Shown here piece by piece: positions 8,398 through 42,790 of a stretch of 55,120 nucleotides of DNA (positions within the stretch are counted from its first letter, which is position 1; each line of letters starts with the position of its first letter). This stretch comes from Octopus sinensis (taxonomy: Eukaryota). Made by a program: the position numbers and the translations under genes. A model generated the notes under the pieces. It searched no databases, was not told where the DNA came from, and saw only the letters and a list, made by a program, of their open reading frames with translations. The stretch covers positions 1 to 55,120 of the forward strand of contig NW_021833792.1 of NCBI RefSeq assembly GCF_006345805.1. Reading direction: 5' to 3'.

Positions 8398-8532
8398 AAA
8401 AGCCATTCCAAGGCATAAAGCATGGCAACAGGTTTTGGATTAATATTCATAGAAGTCAGCAATAATATTAGAGTGACAATACTCGAGCTTGGTACACCAG
8501 GTAGAGCCATTGTAACTATGGCTGTAAGAACT
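8398..8532 (-). CDS. SLC1/EAAT-family transporter exon (HP2-TM8a), 135 nt
   Basis: caatag acceptor and GTAAGT donor, phase 2-2; encodes VLTAIVTMALPGVPSSSIVTLILLLTSMNINPKPVAMLYALEWL, which aligns to EAAT TATLASIGAAGIPQAGLVTM...LIIAVDWFL. Confidence 0.93.
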
Positions 8533-8796
8533 CTATTGAAATAAATGAAAATAGTTTCAAATTAGTCTATATAATAATCAGTTAGTATGGAGTGTATGTG
8601 TTCAATTTTATTATTGTTTATCTGTGAAAATTCACAAAGTTAAAATGTGACAACAGGTAGAAAAGATTTTAAGTAAAGAAAGACTGGACAATCATAAATA
8701 TAAAGTTGATATCTTTTTAAATTGGTTCAGCATCATAGATTTTGGGATAGAATTGAATAAGCTGACCTGATATTTGACTTCTCTTTTATCTTTTTT

Positions 8797-9140
8797 TTAC
8801 TTGTTTCAGTTATTAGACTGCAGCCATTAGTCAAATAAATCATCCCCAGTATTTTTTCTTAAACCTAGTACTTATTCTATCAGTCTATTTGCTGAACTGC
8901 TAAGTTACAGGGACATAAACACACCAACACTGGTTGTCAAGTGGTGGTGGGAATAAACACAGAAACAAAGACACACACACACATATACATACAACAGGCT
9001 TCTTTTAGTTTCTGTCTACAAGGCTTCGGTCAGCCTGTGGTTATAGTAGAAGACATTAGCCCAATGTGCCATGCAGTGGGACTGAACCCAGAACTATGTG
9101 TTTGGGAAGCAAACTTCTTACCACATAATCATGCATGCAC
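8797..9140 (-). mobile_element. tRNA-derived SINE
   Basis: Minus strand has an A-box-like gtggtaag and a B-box-like ggttcagtcc, plus an internal (CA)n; homologous copy at 32262-32570. Confidence 0.75.
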
Positions 9141-10389
9141 TTATACTTCTTTTATTCATCCTACAAGGATGAAAGACAAACTTGAACCACCAAAACTAAA
9201 ACTCAAAGCATAAAGGGTTGTCGCTAGATACCACAAGACATTTTACTTGGCCCACTTCCACTTCAACTACCCACTGCAGACAAGTGGTTGGAGTAAGGAT
9301 GTATTGTAGTGCTTCCTATCATGACTCAACCTTAGTATTATGAGCTAACAAAGCACCTATTAAAACACTTTTGATACCAATTCCTCTGAGACTGCCCTTG
9401 GTTCTATGATGTAAACTTCATATTTTAAAGTGATCTACGTTAAAACCTTCCAATTTCATATTAATTCATGTTCCAAACACAAACTTAATAATAACACCGT
9501 TGTTTCCTATTATTCTTCATTATTTTTACAATTAACTGAAACTAAGGCAGTGTATTTCAATAGAAATGTGGTAACAAAAAGGTTAGTTTTACAGTGCTAC
9601 CACTTCTTAAATTACATTCAATGGAATACCTTGCCACTTCTCTCAGTAGCCCAGTTCATTCATATTGCTTCCTACCTCCTAGACTCTGCACAAAATCTTA
9701 TGTACACCTCTTCTTTCCCAGAACACTACCCTCTAGAATTCCTTCCCTGCTTCTGCTTCTCCTGAAGTCATCAACTTGCAGTATTTTATGGGAATATTTC
9801 CTTCCACCAAACTCTCATAATCTGTAGCTATCAGTATAATCTTACATTATAAATAAAATCTTAATACAAAGTTGGGTCATTGTTGATCTGCTATAATTCC
9901 AATGATGAAACATGTACCGAGGCGTGAAAGTGTACTGGTTATAAGGAATTGAAGGTTGAGTCTCAAACATTTTTTTCATCTTGTAGTTAACACAGGAAAT
10001 ATAATAAAAGAAGGAAAGAGTGAAAAAGAAGAGAGAAGAGGAGAAAGATGCAAAGGAATAAAGGAGTGAATAATTGCACAAAGTATATTTGAGGGAATTC
10101 TCTTTTCAGTTGCCCAAATAGATTTTTCTTAACTCAATAATTCTTTCTACTGTATGTAGAAGACCAAAAGTTTTGGAGGATGGGTCTAGTCAATTACAAC
10201 GAGCCCAATGCTCAGTTGTAATTAATTTATACTATTTATAAGTAGAAAGACTTATGCTAACAGTTCTGGAAGACGGAAAGAAACTATATTGTGAGAATTC
10301 ACCCACAGGGCAAAACATCCAAAAATGTTTTATAGGCCTTGAAAGAATGAAAGGCAAAGTTGACCTCAGTTAGCTGCTGCTGCTATAAG

Positions 10390-10505
10390 TAATAATGATG
10401 ATGATGATGATGATGTTGGTGATGATGATGATGATGATGAGGAAGATGATGGTGATGATGATGATGATGAGGATGATGATGGTGATGATGATAATAATAA
10501 TAATA
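10390..10505. repeat. (GAT)n/(AAT)n microsatellite
   Basis: Read directly; abuts the 3' end of the Tx1-like LINE. Confidence 0.95.
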
Positions 10506-14880: not shown

Positions 14881-15183
14881 TGATTTGAAAAGCCATGTTT
14901 GCAAATTTTGGTTTCAAAATATGAAATTTTGAATTGTTAAAAGTCAAAATTCATTCTTAAAGGGTGAATGTTTTGCCACCCCAGTTGGCCCTGCTTGTGG
15001 CAATCTGGGTTATCAAAATTACAGTTCAACAAAATATGCAAAAACAAACAGTAAAGCAACAAATTTGACGAAAAATTAACAGAACTCCGAACATGTGACT
15101 GACAGCTGTGTCTGGACACAAATGATAATAATAATAATAATAACAATAATAATAATAATGATAATAATAATGATAATAATAAT

Positions 15184-15470
15184 CTTGAGGAGACCTATTG
15201 AGTCAAGCACATCAACATAAAAAAAAAAAAATCAAATGGAAATTGCACCATCCGTACGTGGCCGATGCCAGCGCCGCCTTGACTGGCTTCCGTGCCGGTG
15301 GCATGTAAAAAGCACCAACCAATCATAGCCATTTCCAGCCTCCCGTAGCACCTGTGCCGGTGGCACGTATAAAGCACCCACTACACTCATGGAGTGGTTG
15401 GCTTTAGGAAGGGCATCCAGCTGTAGAAACACTGCCAGATCAGACTGGAGCCTGGATGATGATGATAATG
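15184..15470 (+). mobile_element. RTE-tail-related SINE-like repeat following an (AAT)n tract
   Basis: aaagcacccactacactc...gagtggttggc.ttaggaagggcatccagctgtagaaacactgccagatcagactgg is shared with 1251-1953, 24175-24563 and 54826-55118. Confidence 0.8.
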
Positions 15471-15932
15471 AATAATCCTTTCAACAAGGATCACGTTTCC
15501 CCAGTGATCAAATGGTACTTGTTTTATTGACCCCGGAAAGATGAAAGGCAAAGTCAACCATGGTGGAACTTGAAAAAAAAAATGATAATAATAATAATAA
15601 TATAATGGGCGTAATGGTCAAACGGCAGGAGCAATGGTCATGATGTTTTTTGGGAATACGATGGAGGTAATAAGGCAGGTTTTAGCAAAAAAAAAGAAAT
15701 GTGAAAAAGTATGGTCATTTAGTGGATATTGAAAGTAATTGTTCAGTTTACGATTGTACAAAAAAAGAGTAAAAATTAAGGGGAGATAACTCCTAATAAA
15801 AAATCAAAGGGAAGTAAATCATCTTACTTCTCTGAATTATGCCATAAGCTTTATTAAAGAATGATTGTGTTGGTTTTGGCTCATCTTTAATTGGTGTGTA
15901 GTGTACGCTTAGTGAAATTCTCTCTCTCTATC

Positions 15933-17096: not shown

Positions 17097-18259
17097 ATTG
17101 GTCATCCCATAAAGGATGCAGTTTTTTTACACTTCTTTTATTTTTCAAAATTAAGACAACCAAAGTTCTGTTTTAATCTAAAATATACTCTCCTTCATTT
17201 GCTACAATGCTCTTCCATCTCTCTGGTAGACTTGCAAGGCTCCTCTTCCCAAATTTACTTGTTTGTGATGAAAAATACTCCTCCAGTACTGTTCTGACCT
17301 TGTCTACAGAATTCATATCTTTTGCATTCAAATGATTTTGAAGACTGCGGAATAAATGATAATCAAATGGGGCAATGTCTGGTGAACATGGTGAGTGGGG
17401 CATTGTTTCTCATTCCAACTGCTCCAGCCCTTGGAATGTCATTCTTGCTGTATGTGGCCGAGCATTATCCTGATGGAAGAACACCTTTCGTCTTGAAACT
17501 AGAGACGGTCATTTTTGTTCCAGCGCTGACTTAAGCTGTGCACAGTAGATCTCCTTTGTTATTGTTTAGTTCGGGTTTAAAAGTTCAAAGTGGACTAAAC
17601 TTTTCATACCCTCCTTTCCCTACCCACTACCTTCGACGCTTGACATTTTTATAGAGAAACCCAAAAAAGGTTCATTTGTGAGATATGACAGCAATATTCA
17701 CTCTCTGCATGTGATTAAACTCGGAAAGTTCATGAGAAACCCATTGACCCAATTTGCTGACTTTTGCTGATGGCATGCAGTTGTCGATAAATGATTGAAT
17801 GACCAAATCCAGAACTCTCTGCTAGTTCCTCAACAATTATGATGGAATTTTGTTCCACCAACGTTTGCAGGATGTCCTCATCAAGCTCTACAGATCTTCC
17901 AGGATGAGGCTCATCTTCTAGGCCCTAGTTTCTAGGTTGGAATTTCCGGAACTACTGTTGACAGTGGCTTACGCTTATTGTCTGATCCTCATATACTGCA
18001 TTAATATTCCTCCCATTTTCCACTTTTATTGAACTCATAAAGCAAAATATGCCAAATATGCTCTTCGTCACTTCTATATAGCTTTGTAAAAATAACTTAA
18101 AATTGAACTGCACTCTTCAAAATTTACACTAAAAATAAGGACAAGGTAAAATTACTACTTGCTTTTATAGCAAGTTGATGCTGGTAGTTTATCCCATCCC
18201 CCTCCGACTTTTAACTCATGCAATTGAATAAAACTGCATTATTTATGGGATGACACAAT
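17097..18259 (-). mobile_element. mariner (DD34D) transposon, decayed
   Basis: Imperfect TIRs gtcatcccataaa..atgcagtttt at 17101 and its reverse complement ending at 18254; HSPCSPDIAPFDYHLFRSLQNHL and RSGRSVELDED-like motifs. Confidence 0.9.
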
Positions 18260-18569
18260 AGATAGACATCTTCTTAGTCCTCTCACTATAAACCAGCAGA
18301 AAATATAATCTAATGTGGAAAAAATATAAAAATAAATAAAAATGACTTTAAATTTTATTTGTGTTTGACTATTACACGTTAAAAATTGTTAATTATGGGA
18401 TGAAAATGAAGACTTAATGTTACAGATATGGCATAATGAAAAAAGAAAATTTATAAAATATGTAATTTCCAGAAATGCTGCTAGTTCTCATTACTTCTGT
18501 GATTTAATAAACCACCCTTGCCCACCAAAAACAAACCACCCAAAATAAAACAAGAAATAGCTAACTTAC

Positions 18570-18764
18570 ACAAGTACTGTTATATTGCCAGCATTTAGAT
18601 GAACACCTTGGTAGTTTGCTAGGAACATAGCTGCTGTTACAATGAACACAGCACTGCCACCCGCATTTAAAGTCACTACTAGAGGTAGTGATACTCCAAC
18701 CACTCGTTTATCAGCACCATTTCTCTCCACAAGACTAGATTCCATTTCTGGAAAGGCAGCAGAA
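18570..18764 (-). CDS. SLC1/EAAT-family transporter exon (HP1b-TM7-HP2a), 195 nt
   Basis: tactttag acceptor and GTAAGT donor, phase 2-2; SAAFPEMESSLVERNGADKRVVGVSLPLVVTLNAGGSAVFIVTAAMFLANYQGVHLNAGNITVL aligns to EAAT SATLP..LEE.NGVDKRV..FVLP.GATINMDGTALYEA. Confidence 0.95.
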
Positions 18765-18894
18765 CTAAAGTAATAGAAAAAATAAATAGATAAAAAAAGT
18801 AAATTGTTGAAAATGAAAAATGATTTCTTTTGACTATTCAATGTTTATACTAGTTATTTAAAGTTATTATTAAATCCATTATACTATAGTTATA

Positions 18895-19035: not shown

Positions 19036-20302
19036 TATTCTTTTATGCATTTCAGCCCAAAGGGTGTGTCCATTCCAGGGCACCACCAATGTTAGAAAAT
19101 TACTATTTTTAAATCTCACAATGTGAGATGTTCAGCAACAGTACTTTGTAGTAAAGATTGTTTGCCAACATAACATGGCAGTCCTGTTTAGGACTAATGT
19201 TGTTGTAATTTAGCCCCAGGAGACATCGTCTCCAGCTGGCTATATGACACAATCCGTGTCCTTATATTTTCAAACCTCAGCTCAAAACAATATCTGTGTA
19301 TCACAATTTCTTGGTTATATCCCTTTATCAGCACAGAATAATTGTTTGAAAACTATATATTTTGAACAGGAATTTGGCAACGCCACCTCTAGCCAAACAA
19401 TTATTGTGCTGATGAAGAGAAATATAATTTAGAAAGTAGCAGAGGAAAATAGTGGGAGGGGGTTAAGAAAAAGGAATGGTGAGATAGTTAATTTATATTT
19501 ATCTTTATCATATTTATAAGATTTTATCTACAACCCTTTAGGAGTTGACAGTTATGTTCCAATTGATGGTAATAAATTAATTAATGTGAGATACCCTCCC
19601 TGACCCTTATTTTACTGGGACTATATAGCTAGCTTTATCTACATAAAAGGATATGTCTCAGAGCTGCTAGTAAGAGTATGACTGATGGAGAAGAGGTGAT
19701 AACTAGAAGGAGGAAGGGTTACTAGGTGTATCATAACTGAGCCAATTTGATATATCAAAAATTTAGAAAAGAATTTTAGAACAATATAAAGGCAAAAGGA
19801 TAGATAATTAAACTTAAACCTTAGAAATTGGGTACTTTAATATATAAGACAAAGTTCATGAGGCCTTTTCTAAGCATATTGCTATTATAGTAGGCTTTGG
19901 ATATACATTTTCCCCTAAATTCATTCTGTCAAAAGGAAACAATGTAATTATTTTGGTTTCTAGTACTGATGTAAATTGTGCTACAAAAAAAAATGGTTTA
20001 TCCTTTATATTGGAGATCTATATGGTCATCTGCATCTGAGTAGAGCGGTTTCTTTCAATTTGATGTAATGTTTTCATTGATCGATTAAATGGAGCTGCTT
20101 GAAATGGCCATAATGCACTGATACCTGGACATTCTTGTTACTTATTTGCTTTATATATATATATATATATATATATGACAAAAAAATTCTTAATGTACTT
20201 ATTTGTTCAGTTAAAAATCCTTAATAAACATCATCATCATTTAATGTTAGTTGTCCATGTTGCCATAGGTTGGATGGTTTGACTGGACTGGCATGCTGGA
20301 AG

Positions 20303-21245
20303 GTCCACAGCTTCTTCCCCAACCCAACCTGACTCGTTCCCCTGCTCCTGCCCATGCTGCCACACTTGCCCTTATCTCTCCAACACCACCCTCCTCACCG
20401 GCACCTATTATCAACTCCTTCACCTGCACTTCTATCAATATCATCTATTTCATCTATTGCCATTCTCTGTACATCGGACAAATGGGATGCCGCTTGGCTG
20501 ACCGGTTTGCGGAACACCTCCGAGACGTCCGTCTCAGCAATGACACCCCGGTCTCACGCCATTTCCGCTCTATCGGTCACTCTTGGCAACACCTGTCCGT
20601 GTTTGGATTGTCCGTGTTTGGATTGTCCTTGCACAGAGGCCATCTGGACTCCCGTTTGTGCCATGAACAGGGATAAATTTTCTCTCTTTGATCCTTTGTG
20701 CCAAAAGGGCTCAATTCTCCTCCCCTCTTCATCTGACCTCCCCCTACATCTCTTCACGCCTACTCTCTTTCTTCTCCCACACACCCCTTCCCCCTTCATC
20801 GTCAACCCTCCCCCATAAGCCCACCCACCCCTACACAACCTTTCCTATCCTTCTAATCCCACCCCATCCCTTACACTCTCCCACATACCCCGCCTCTACC
20901 CCAACCCTCAGCCTAACCCACACCCCACCCATGCTTTTCCCACCTCCCTACACAATCATAACACACCGCCACACATACACCAGCACTGACTAATTCCCAT
21001 CCCCACATTTTCACACATCAAGATCACCAGCCTTCTTTCACACGCACACACATGTGCATCTTCGTTTTGGGACCATTACTACTTTGTTATCTCCCCTACT
21101 TCTTAGCTCTCCTGTGTGATCCTTCTGTCCGGCATTTGCCATGATAGATCGGTAGCCACTACACACATTTTTTTCTCTCCTTGTTTCTTTCTGTGGAAGA
21201 GCATAGGCTCGAAACGTTAAAGACTTTTTCAATTCCTCCCTTCCA
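20303..21245 (+). mobile_element. Penelope-like element 3' part (GIY-YIG endonuclease plus UTR with hammerhead-like motif)
   Basis: FTCTSINIIYFIYC..LYIGQMGCRLADRFAEHLRDV...PVSRHF; the downstream tggaagagcataggctcgaaacgttaaaga (21194-21223) is a degenerate minimal hammerhead. Confidence 0.85.
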
Positions 21246-30032: not shown

Positions 30033-30266
30033 CTGCTGGTGAAAGTAAATGCTAAAATATAAGGCCGTATGCAGGTGAAGAAGAACTTAAATGGGTTTTT
30101 CCGGAAAATAATAAGGTATATCAGATTCATGAAGACCAACATATGGCAAGCAAGTCCAATCAAAACAGTGAGGCTAAACATTCCAAGACTGGTGAAGAGT
30201 GTGCTGATGTCCTTAATACCGGCTACTGATGCCATTATCAAACTAGCGACGCCAATTGGAGTTATT
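30033..30266 (-). CDS. SLC1/EAAT-family transporter exon (TM5 end-TM6-HP1a), 234 nt
   Basis: ttttgttttgcag acceptor and GTAAGT donor, phase 2-2; ITPIGVASLIMASVAGIKDISTLFTSLGMFSLTVLIGLACH...IIFRKNPFKFF...LAFTFTS, typical of SLC1. Confidence 0.95.
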
Positions 30267-41063: not shown

Positions 41064-42790
41064 TTAACCCTTTTGATACCAGACTGTCTGAATAAGGCTG
41101 AGAATTTTGATACTGAATGACACCAAAACAACTGAAATAACCTAGCCATATTTAAATGAGAATTTCAGTGCAAATCTTGTTAGTACATTCATGAAAGCAA
41201 TGTGATTTCACTGCATAAATCATTTGTTTGGGTTACAGTATTCAACATTATTTTGTGTGATATCTAACCTCTGTGAATCGTTGGAGATTTTTTCCCCCAC
41301 ATTTTTTTTACACCATTGTTTGAATTTTATTAATACTGACGGAAAATAGATAACAATTTTATGCTGTCAACTAGTGAATCAGAATCTGAAGGATTTTCAA
41401 CTGAAGATATGGAACAATCAAACAAAATATGCAGCCAACATAAAAATTACATGGTATGTGAAAATGAATTGGATATTTCTATTTCTGAAAGTGAAAGCGA
41501 TTCAGATGATAACTTAAACAGTGACAAAGAAAATGAATTTGTACCTGACTGGAACAAAAGCTTGAAAACTGTTTCTCTTACAAATTTTTCTAAAGAGGCT
41601 GGACCTAGTCACAGTCTTCCCCAGGAGACAAGACCATGAGAGTATTTTTAAAAGTTTTTCCTCCTAGTTTGCTTGAAGCAATTACTGTGGAAATTAATAG
41701 CTATGCAGAATATAAACAACATGATAAAAAAGACTGTTTGGGGTTTTCAATGTGCTTAGATGAAATCCAAGCATTTTTTGCCATCAATAATATAATGGGA
41801 ATAAGGAAGCTACCCAGAATGACAAATTATTGGAGCAGTGATAAACCTTTTGGAGAACAATATGTTTCCAGTGTCATGACATGGACAAATTTTAAATACC
41901 TATACATAAGGGACACTAGCAGAATACCAGTACAAGGAAAGCCAAACCTTGATCTCTTATTTAAATGAAGACCCCTCATCAACTGTGTTCAAATCACTTA
42001 TAAAACATTCTATATACCTGTCTGCTGATGAGGGTATGGTGGAATACAAAGGTAGAGTACATTTCCGATAGTTATATGCCCAGAAAACCCACAAAATGGA
42101 GGATCAAAATTTGAAAGATTTGTGAAACCAATACTGGGTACAGCTGTAGATCCAGTTTCTATACAGAGAAAAGTGACAATAATGTAAGCCAGCATGGCCT
42201 AGAGAGCAATGTGGTCTGGAATTTATCTCTCCCATGCCATAATCAAGACCATATATTATGTTTTGATCTGTTTTTGGTCACAGTGGCAATAAATTTAGGA
42301 GCTGTGACAGCATACATATATCCTACAGTAGAAAAACTAAAGCTTACCAGAGGGATATCGCTCTGAATTCAGCCAATCTCCATAAATTAGAAAAAATCAA
42401 GGATCACTAAAGGCAGTGCTGTGAATGTCTTCATCAAAGAAAAAGAAAAGCTCCCAGTTGTTGAAATGAGTTTCCAATATGTATTCTGCAAGCTCGCTTT
42501 ATGTAGAGTGGGGTGCTTTACAAGTTGCCATCATAGAAATATTGTGTGATTTGTATACATATAATTTGATTTTATAAATACTTTTTCAAATTTACCTTGT
42601 CTTTATTTTTTATTTACCTATAATTTTAATTTATTGGTATCAATTTGTATTGTGAATCATATTACATATAATAAAATAAAATGTGTATCTCATTGGTTGT
42701 GCTAGGTAAAGAAGAGTAAAACAACAAACAGCATGGGAGTGAGTGACAGTCAGAGGTGGTAAAGCAGGCTAACAGCATTCAAAAGCTTTG
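41064..42790 (+). mobile_element. piggyBac transposon, decayed
   Basis: TTAA-CCCTTT 5' end; acidic N-terminus; EIQAFFAI..IMGIRKLP...YWSSD, DEGMVEYKGR, MPRKPTKW, C-terminal Cys-rich region; the 3' boundary is approximate. Confidence 0.85.

Follow-up and report, generated by a model that had tools for sequence, protein, structure and literature searches.

The locus and its exons

The window, the whole stretch of DNA that was analysed, is an entire unplaced contig (C10263) of 55,120 bases from the Octopus sinensis assembly. Four exons of an SLC1 transporter gene lie in it, and these were located by tblastn with the orthologues from Octopus bimaculoides and Argonauta hians. The features are as follows:

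42195..42013, minus strand: first 'exon' of the deposited partial gene model, residues 1-61 of P0002
40848..40722, minus strand: exon A, TM4c region, GLITFSFFFGMAAGSLKEKGEPFHMFFESTRLITAEIFKYLFK; tblastn 93% identity to P0003 residues 167-209
30266..30033, minus strand: exon B, TM5-TM6 with the beginning of HP1, ITPIGVASLIM...ILAFTFTS; tblastn 91% identity to P0003 residues 209-286
18764..18570, minus strand: exon C, encoding the last part of HP1 and the SLC1 TM7 (TM7a, the unwound stretch equivalent to NMDG, and TM7b)
18667..18656, minus strand: NAGG codons AAT GCG GGT GGC within exon C, at the place of the family NMDG (read from the sequence)
8532..8398, minus strand: exon D, HP2 with the beginning of TM8, VLTAIVTMALPGVPSSSIVTLILLLTSMNINPKPVAMLYALEWL; tblastn 100% identity to P0003 residues 353-397

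Exons A-D are each flanked by an acceptor AG and a donor GTAAGT, and the codons that are split between exons fit together. The original prediction, which was made from the window sequence alone, had described four exons with intact frames and consensus splice sites, and this description is borne out by the tblastn search with the orthologues and by the splice-site check. The segment at 42195..42013 was considered as a true exon and rejected; nothing in the O. bimaculoides or Argonauta proteins corresponds to it, it gave no Pfam match, and it is probably a modelling artefact that gave the deposited model a false first exon.

The true upstream exons of the NAGG gene are on other contigs of the assembly, as is its last exon. 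Each of the following was found once in the O. sinensis assembly:

C4430:8489-8710: exon 1
C13316:731-901: TM2 exon
C13316:17256-17390: TM3 exon, which reads ...LIVVILSNLLGS...
C7:87562651-87562749 and C7:87618248-87618397: two further exons
C8873:60712-60939: last exon, which reads DRLRSGNNLLSHILG..., with an open frame up to the stop

The TM8 sequence in the last exon is DRLRSGNNLLSH. The gene is complete, but it is spread over five contigs, one of chromosome scale and four small and unplaced. The protein deposited from the window (P0002, 'neutral amino acid transporter A-like, partial') is therefore partial.

In four sequencing runs, the intron stretches at 8654-9361, 10070-10423, 15026-15733 and 17150-18211 show summed contig depths from hundreds to 132,000, with many loose ends and false joints, and they behave like high-copy dispersed repeats. 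Intronic open reading frames at 17176-17409 (minus), 17733-17924 (minus) and 20269-20673 (plus) look transposon-like by eye and gave no Pfam match.

The TM7 exon and its NAGG motif

Exon C is part of an open frame on the minus strand of 18566-18844, the translation of which ends ...SSAAFPEMESSLVERNGADKRVVGVSLPLVVTLNAGGSAVFIVTAAMFLANYQGVHLNAGNITVLV. Its acceptor AG is at 18766-18765 and its GTAAGT donor starts at 18569. The 63-residue peptide of this exon alone passes the Pfam SDF family PF00375, with 36.3 bits against a curated cut-off of 27.9 (E 4.2e-9). When the animal's own genome was searched for SDF, exons B and C were above the cut-off, and PF00375 is precomputed on P0002-P0005, the full-length orthologues included.

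At the amino acid level, exon C and TM7 of human ASCT1, ASCT2 and EAAT1 can be aligned with no gap, and NAGG stands opposite NMDG. The top PDB sequence match of the exon is human ASCT1 (7p4i, E 1.5e-9). Translation and alignment both bear out the earlier reading of NAGG for NMDG at 18656-18667; the Asp-to-Gly position is the codon GGT at 18661..18659. NMDG, a criterion of SLC1 / DAACS membership, is thus absent from its expected place at 18667..18656. The NAGG motif, the Phe-Ile pair downstream of it and the same TM8 sequence are also found in O. bimaculoides (P0003, P0004) and in Argonauta hians (P0005, 518 aa), and Phe-Ile is present in all three octopod species.

The Tyr-Glu pair of EAATs serves H+/K+ coupling. 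It is named as the 'YE' motif in a passage of PMC11297037. In exon C, Phe-Ile is opposite the Tyr-Glu of EAAT1 and the Phe-Gln of ASCT1 and ASCT2. The EAAT proton-site Glu is lost, as had been predicted, but its loss alone is not exceptional, because the ASCTs, which provide the best PDB match of the exon, lack the Glu too and have Gln there.

Integrity of the gene

Words of exon C are found in 20 public sequencing runs, the types of all of which are guessed only ('RNA?' or '?'). Contigs of four of these runs (X1, X5, X6 and X14, from four studies with three organism labels) were placed on the window between 8300 and 18900. In each run exon C is covered over 18570-18750 or 18570-18766, with 0 other letters. 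One contig, record 25 of run X6 (567 letters), has its letters 178-312 on 8398-8532 and its letters 313-509 on 18570-18766. Exons D and C are fused in it precisely at the splice sites that were predicted, with the 10-kb intron absent and 0 other letters, and the exon C and D boundaries match these two contig pieces. Searches of the O. sinensis assembly gave no intron-less copy of the gene, and every exon is single; spliced mRNA is therefore the simplest source of the joined form, the type of the run being guessed.

The gene is intact and conserved in octopods. That it is an artefact or a dying gene, with GGT an assembly or sequencing error or the locus a recent pseudogene, is highly improbable. 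The locus does lie on a 55-kb unplaced contig, the gene is divided among five contigs, and the deposited model covers only part of it and starts with an exon that lacks support. Against these stand the identical NAGG in proteins of two further species, the agreement of exon C contigs from four runs in four studies, the open frames and consensus splice sites of all exons, the contig that joins exons C and D, and a conservation that differs by region. An assembly error at the GGT codon, which had been named as a possible refutation, is itself refuted by the four runs and by the NAGG of the two other species. The proposal of a young pseudogene fails on the open frames in O. bimaculoides and Argonauta hians, the spliced contig and the region-specific conservation.

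Three predicted isoforms of O. bimaculoides are each missing a single core exon, namely the TM3 exon in P0003, exon B (TM5-6/HP1) in P0004 and exon C (TM7) in P0006. If these are real transcripts, their products could not fold as transporters.

Constraint and rate of evolution

Protein identity by region between Octopus and Argonauta was used as a proxy for constraint, with a canonical EAAT (P0288 versus P0289) as control:

N-terminal tail: NAGG gene 22%
TM1-2: NAGG gene 75%, canonical EAAT 92%
TM3: NAGG gene 60%, canonical EAAT 95%
Extracellular loop: NAGG gene 59%, canonical EAAT 88%
TM4c-6: NAGG gene 75%, canonical EAAT 97%
HP1-TM7-HP2-TM8: NAGG gene 83% (112/135), canonical EAAT 99% (134/135)
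C-terminal tail: NAGG gene 37%
Overall: NAGG gene 68-71% (342/506 = 68%), canonical EAAT 91% (497/544)

These identities clearly point to constraint on the NAGG gene that is strongest in the transport core. The core is 83% identical versus 22-37% in the tails, and the gene is intact in both O. bimaculoides and Argonauta hians, in keeping with the selection that had been surmised from intact frames in the window. In a mixture-model tree, the tip branches measure 0.31-0.33 changes per site for the NAGG pair and 0.05-0.06 for the canonical pair. By these measures the NAGG gene is evolving several times faster than the canonical octopod EAAT. Such fast evolution also fits a relaxed constraint or an altered, non-transport role.

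Functional residues

Residues were compared in alignment A1, which has 50 divergent and 21 canonical rows, with GltPh numbering. The roles of the residues were taken from passages of PMC12668577 and, for ASCT2, of PMC11297037. Each line gives the role and position, the octopod residue and the count in the divergent rows:

Na3, T92: octopod Ser; Thr in 32/50
Na3, S93: octopod Asn; Asn in 34/50
Na1/Na3, N310: octopod Asn, kept; Asn in 21/50
Na2, M311: octopod Ala; Ala in 19/50, Arg in 17/50
Na3, D312: octopod Gly; Asp in 30/50
Na1, D405: octopod His; His in 32/50
EAAT H+/K+ coupling, EAAT Glu: octopod Ile; Ile in 41/50
EAAT H+/K+ coupling, preceding Tyr: octopod Phe; Phe in 36/50
Substrate, T314: octopod Ser; Ser in 47/50
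Substrate, D394: octopod Asp; Asp in 50/50
Substrate, R397: octopod Arg; Arg in 50/50
Substrate, N401: octopod Asn; Asn in 44/50

The substrate residues in Argonauta P0005 are D440, R443 and N447. The HP1 serines, S328-S330 in the same protein, are retained in the octopod proteins. In TM8, the Gly that precedes the Na1 Asp position is replaced by Ser in octopods. The change of the Na1 Asp itself to His sits in an exon outside the window, and the original prediction missed it.

Two published signatures can be set beside these residues. The Na+ signature, as given in a passage of PMC12668577, is [S/T]92-93, N310, [M/S]311, [D/E]312 and [D/E]405. Octopods have S, N, N, A, G and H at 92, 93, 310, 311, 312 and 405, and thus depart from it at four of the six positions (93, 311, 312 and 405). 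The bacterial H+ signature in the same source is a hydrophobic residue at 92, Leu311 and Asn405 (PMC12668577); the octopod Ser, Ala and His at 92, 311 and 405 do not agree with it either.

Predicted fold

An AlphaFold2 model of Argonauta P0005, made with alignment A1, has a pLDDT of 85.5 and a pTM of 0.84. HP1 and HP2 are retained in the model. Its TM7 is interrupted at N362-A363, and therefore the unwound segment is kept. In a structure search by VIA-align of 48,161 PDB representatives, the top match of the model is human ASCT1, 7p4i (Z 32.4, rmsd 4.0 A, 425/428 residues, 32% identity). The second is 9bh0, an 'ancestral uncoupled aspartate transporter' (Z 31.2, 269 residues aligned), and the next chain, which is unrelated, has a Z of 7.6. 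The GltPh/EAAT fold, with two helical hairpins and a broken TM7, is thus predicted for the Argonauta orthologue, the model being of that protein and not of the O. sinensis protein itself.

A divergent bilaterian group of SLC1 proteins

Full-length searches yielded 267 proteins and, in the representative library, 2,706 representatives at E <= 1e-10. The nearest relatives outside the octopods are about 40% identical and 'EAAT-like', and come from gastropods, bivalves, chitons, nemerteans, a cestode and hemichordates. Members from Haliotis, Ostrea, Crassostrea, Lymnaea, Liolophura, Lineus, Tubulanus, Anoplocephala, Ptychodera and others are labelled just 'excitatory amino acid transporter-like'; the deposited names 'ASCT1-like' and 'EAAT1-like' are automatic. 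No orthologue from squid, cuttlefish or nautilus was found in the protein searches or in the representative library, which may not include such sequences.

For a count of motifs, 249 of 268 proteins, each 380-700 aa long, were aligned. NMDG is present in 145 of the 249. Other motifs are NRDG (13), NMNG (13), NADG (9), GRCG (4), KSDG (4), SANG (3) and further variants. NAGG is confined to three rows, all octopod.

The phylogeny that had been suggested as a check was run at 89 and at 43 rows, and the gene falls inside a large divergent bilaterian group, a group that is provisional and defined here by sequence. The 89 rows are 36 named proteins, the first 48 of 95 eligible unnamed representatives and five more unnamed ones; the tree was made under LG+G4 by a quick search, with SH-aLRT support only and an arbitrary root. 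The 36 canonical rows are split off by a branch with a support of 100, and the octopod pair (support 100, stem 0.9) is within a 47-row divergent group (support 97). A 43-row LG+C20 tree has the same split, with 11 canonical rows at 100, and places the octopod pair on a stem of 1.32 inside a 28-row group (support 91). Neither tree settles the sister of the octopod pair, and both roots are arbitrary. Traits common to the divergent group are a TM8 of the form ...N-x-x-S-H, Glu at the GltPh D390 equivalent, Ile at the position of the EAAT Glu, P-S-[AS]-S in HP2 and the TM3 Asn. By tree placement and by these shared residues, the octopod proteins belong to the group. Loss of the Met, of the Na1 Asp in TM8 (mostly to His) and of the EAAT Glu (mostly to Ile) is general across the group.

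Loss of the NMDG Asp had been called unusual. This is true of the octopod combination, as only two of the 89 rows, both octopod, have neither Asp/Asn nor Arg/Lys. It does not hold as a single-gene oddity, since the Asp is missing in 27 of the 89 rows, with at least 14 changes on the tree. The NMDG Met is present in 35/89 rows with two changes, and the TM8 Asp in 36/89 with three. Among the 89 rows are 15 in which the motif lacks both Asp and Asn, and in 13 of these Arg or Lys stands in place of the Met, a count in which the relatedness of the rows is uncontrolled. The motifs of this kind include GRCG, GRAG, SRIG, ERIG and NKAG, among others, and in the bivalve clade with GR[CA]G the TM8 His position is Gln. 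The pairing suggests that a built-in positive charge may take the place of the cation.

Most of the interest is in the branch as a whole, of which the octopod gene is the most stripped-down sampled member. The SLC1 family is already known, but no description of the divergent branch or of the NAGG/NADG motif variants was found in the literature, subscription journals being outside the search. An oyster EAAT paper, in the part used here, does not discuss the motif (PMC11545548).

A further SDF protein is P0007 (821 aa) of Culicoides sonorensis, which apparently has two tandem SDF units, one with NMDG and one degenerate (SNTPG).

Other SLC1 genes of Octopus sinensis

The counts of other SLC1 genes in the O. 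sinensis genome are lower bounds, and the canonical motif is found in one of at least four distinct genes. The canonical gene is on C10 near 69.47 Mb (INMDGTALYEAV). Another, on C8 near 106.657 Mb, reads IINTNAGALYKS; its TM7 exon (~106,657,116-106,657,310, minus) is LPLGAIINTNAGALYKSVACIFIAQ, with NTNA for NMDG and Tyr-Lys for Tyr-Glu. Two near-identical compact loci with short introns, at C8852:110978-114451 and C8593:36697-40089, have a TM7 of VPLCASGSSAYITCA or VPICASGSTTYITCA, which is four residues shorter across the NMDG position, and a TM8 of DRLRTGVNYYNM. This pair could be a recent duplicate or two haplotype copies.

Possible function of the NAGG protein

From its residues, the predicted fold and analogy with known transporters, the octopod NAGG protein is tentatively proposed, with slightly less than even confidence, to be a carrier for an acidic amino acid-like substrate that works independently of three Na+. 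Since Arg and Asp are retained, the substrate would be an amino acid with an acidic side chain or an anion like it. Both buried acidic Na+ ligands are lost, the NMDG Asp to Gly and the TM8 Na1 Asp to His; in addition, Ala replaces the Na2 Met, and Asn takes the place of one Na3 hydroxyl. With these ligands lost, the binding pocket of the transport domain would no longer have to be neutralised and ordered by cations. It would be pre-formed, as experiments showed for the reconstructed Na+-independent bacterial ancestor, and the substrate would be moved by the elevator mechanism without three Na+. A passage of PMC12668577 describes such a Na+-independent transporter of the SLC1 family, the Na+ residues having been lost later in bacteria. 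The mode of transport might be facilitative, of the exchange type, or proton-linked via the conserved His at the old Na1 site; coupling through this His is a guess, because the bacterial H+-coupled signature is unmatched. A K+-driven return of the empty carrier is not expected, as the EAAT Tyr-Glu is Phe-Ile here. No transport, binding or ion measurement for the NAGG protein or its branch was found in the literature (subscription journals were outside the search).

Among the functions that had been suggested, namely an uncoupled carrier, another substrate, an anion channel-like role or a non-transporting subunit, the retained Asp, Arg and Asn favour a carrier that may still bind an acidic amino acid-like ligand, and the exon-lacking O. 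bimaculoides isoforms count against one. An unlikely alternative, to which those skipped core exons would lend support, is that transport has been lost and the protein kept for an uncoupled anion conductance, for ligand sensing, or as a modulatory subunit in trimers with the canonical EAAT. The same alternative would agree with sequence evolution several times faster than in the canonical octopod EAAT, with the disappearance of all side chains that couple HP2 gating to cations, and with a scaffold (TM1-2 and TM4c-6, 75% each) that is conserved nearly like the core. However, the substrate Asp, Arg and Asn are invariant or almost so in the 50 divergent rows, HP1, HP2 and the unwound TM7 segment are all kept in a confident model, and the transport domain is the best conserved region at 83%, as a working binding site predicts.

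The protein might, on the other hand, still be Na+-coupled through remodelled sites, with one or two Na+ held by backbone carbonyls, Asn113, Asn362 and Ser112, and possibly with a different substrate; this too is given a low probability. The sites Na1 and Na2 are largely built of backbone carbonyls, several of which each of them uses, according to a passage of PMC11297037, and some Na+ binding could therefore outlast the side-chain changes. The equivalents Asn362 (N310), Ser112 (T92) and Asn447 (N401) are kept, and sea water always supplies a Na+ gradient, so that there is no obvious pressure to drop Na+. Yet the Met and both acidic ligands (the 312 and 405 equivalents) are gone, four of the six signature positions fail, and mutation of any of the three sites is reported to diminish Na+-coupled binding and transport (PMC12668577, in part). 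The carrier that is independent of three Na+ is preferred to either alternative.

Perhaps the octopod gene belongs to an undescribed animal SLC1 subfamily in which the three-sodium mechanism was dropped by means of a built-in charge. This charge would be the TM8 His at Na1 and, in many lineages, an Arg or Lys at the Met position when the Na3 Asp is lost. Octopods would represent the end state, with a motif that has no acidic or basic residue, and the protein would move an acidic amino acid by the elevator mechanism, either independently of cations or with a link to protons. As read from the residues, this wider proposal is possible but doubtful. If true, it would be an animal parallel of the bacterial Na+-to-H+ transition.

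Significance

To our knowledge, the view in the SLC1 field is that every animal member conserves NMDG and both aspartates of the sodium sites. A conserved gene that has the substrate site but not the cation residues is a natural experiment on ion coupling in elevator transporters, and so is the wide invertebrate branch. The question of ion coupling has so far been addressed via reconstructed bacterial ancestors, as in the portion of PMC12668577 cited here. Cephalopods are predicted to have a second type of glutamate-family carrier alongside the canonical EAAT. Should the protein turn out to transport by ordinary Na+ coupling after all, the accepted set of essential Na+ ligands would have to be revised.

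Comparison with known systems

EAAT1-3 (SLC1A3/2/1) and the canonical octopod EAAT have the family, the fold, the HP1 serines and the TM8 Asp, Arg and Asn in common with the NAGG protein, and the retained Arg suggests an acidic substrate as in EAATs. The differences are at the coupling positions: EAATs have NMDG, Tyr-Glu, the TM3 Thr-Thr and the TM8 Asp, whereas the octopod protein has NAGG, Phe-Ile, Ser-Asn and His. ASCT1 (SLC1A4) and ASCT2 (SLC1A5) resemble the octopod protein in that the EAAT proton-site Glu is absent. However, three Na+ bind to the ASCTs (PMC11297037, in part), in which NMDG, the two Na+ Asp residues and the Thr-Thr of TM3 are all intact; the octopod protein does not keep these residues. 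In addition, ASCTs have Thr or Cys where the octopod protein retains the Arg for acidic substrates.

The bacterial Na+-independent and H+-coupled homologues, together with the uncoupled ancestor (9bh0), provide a precedent for Na+-free binding and transport, the Na+-site residues having been lost later, as described in part of PMC12668577. The changed positions of the bacterial H+ signature do not include Asp312, whereas the octopod protein has lost this residue, and the octopod case is an animal lineage independent of the bacterial homologues. Within the divergent bilaterian group most members keep the Asp (30/50 rows, in NADG, NRDG, KSDG and similar motifs), unlike the octopods. The octopod proteins also differ from the rest of the group in their long stem, of 0.9 and 1.32 changes per site in the two trees.
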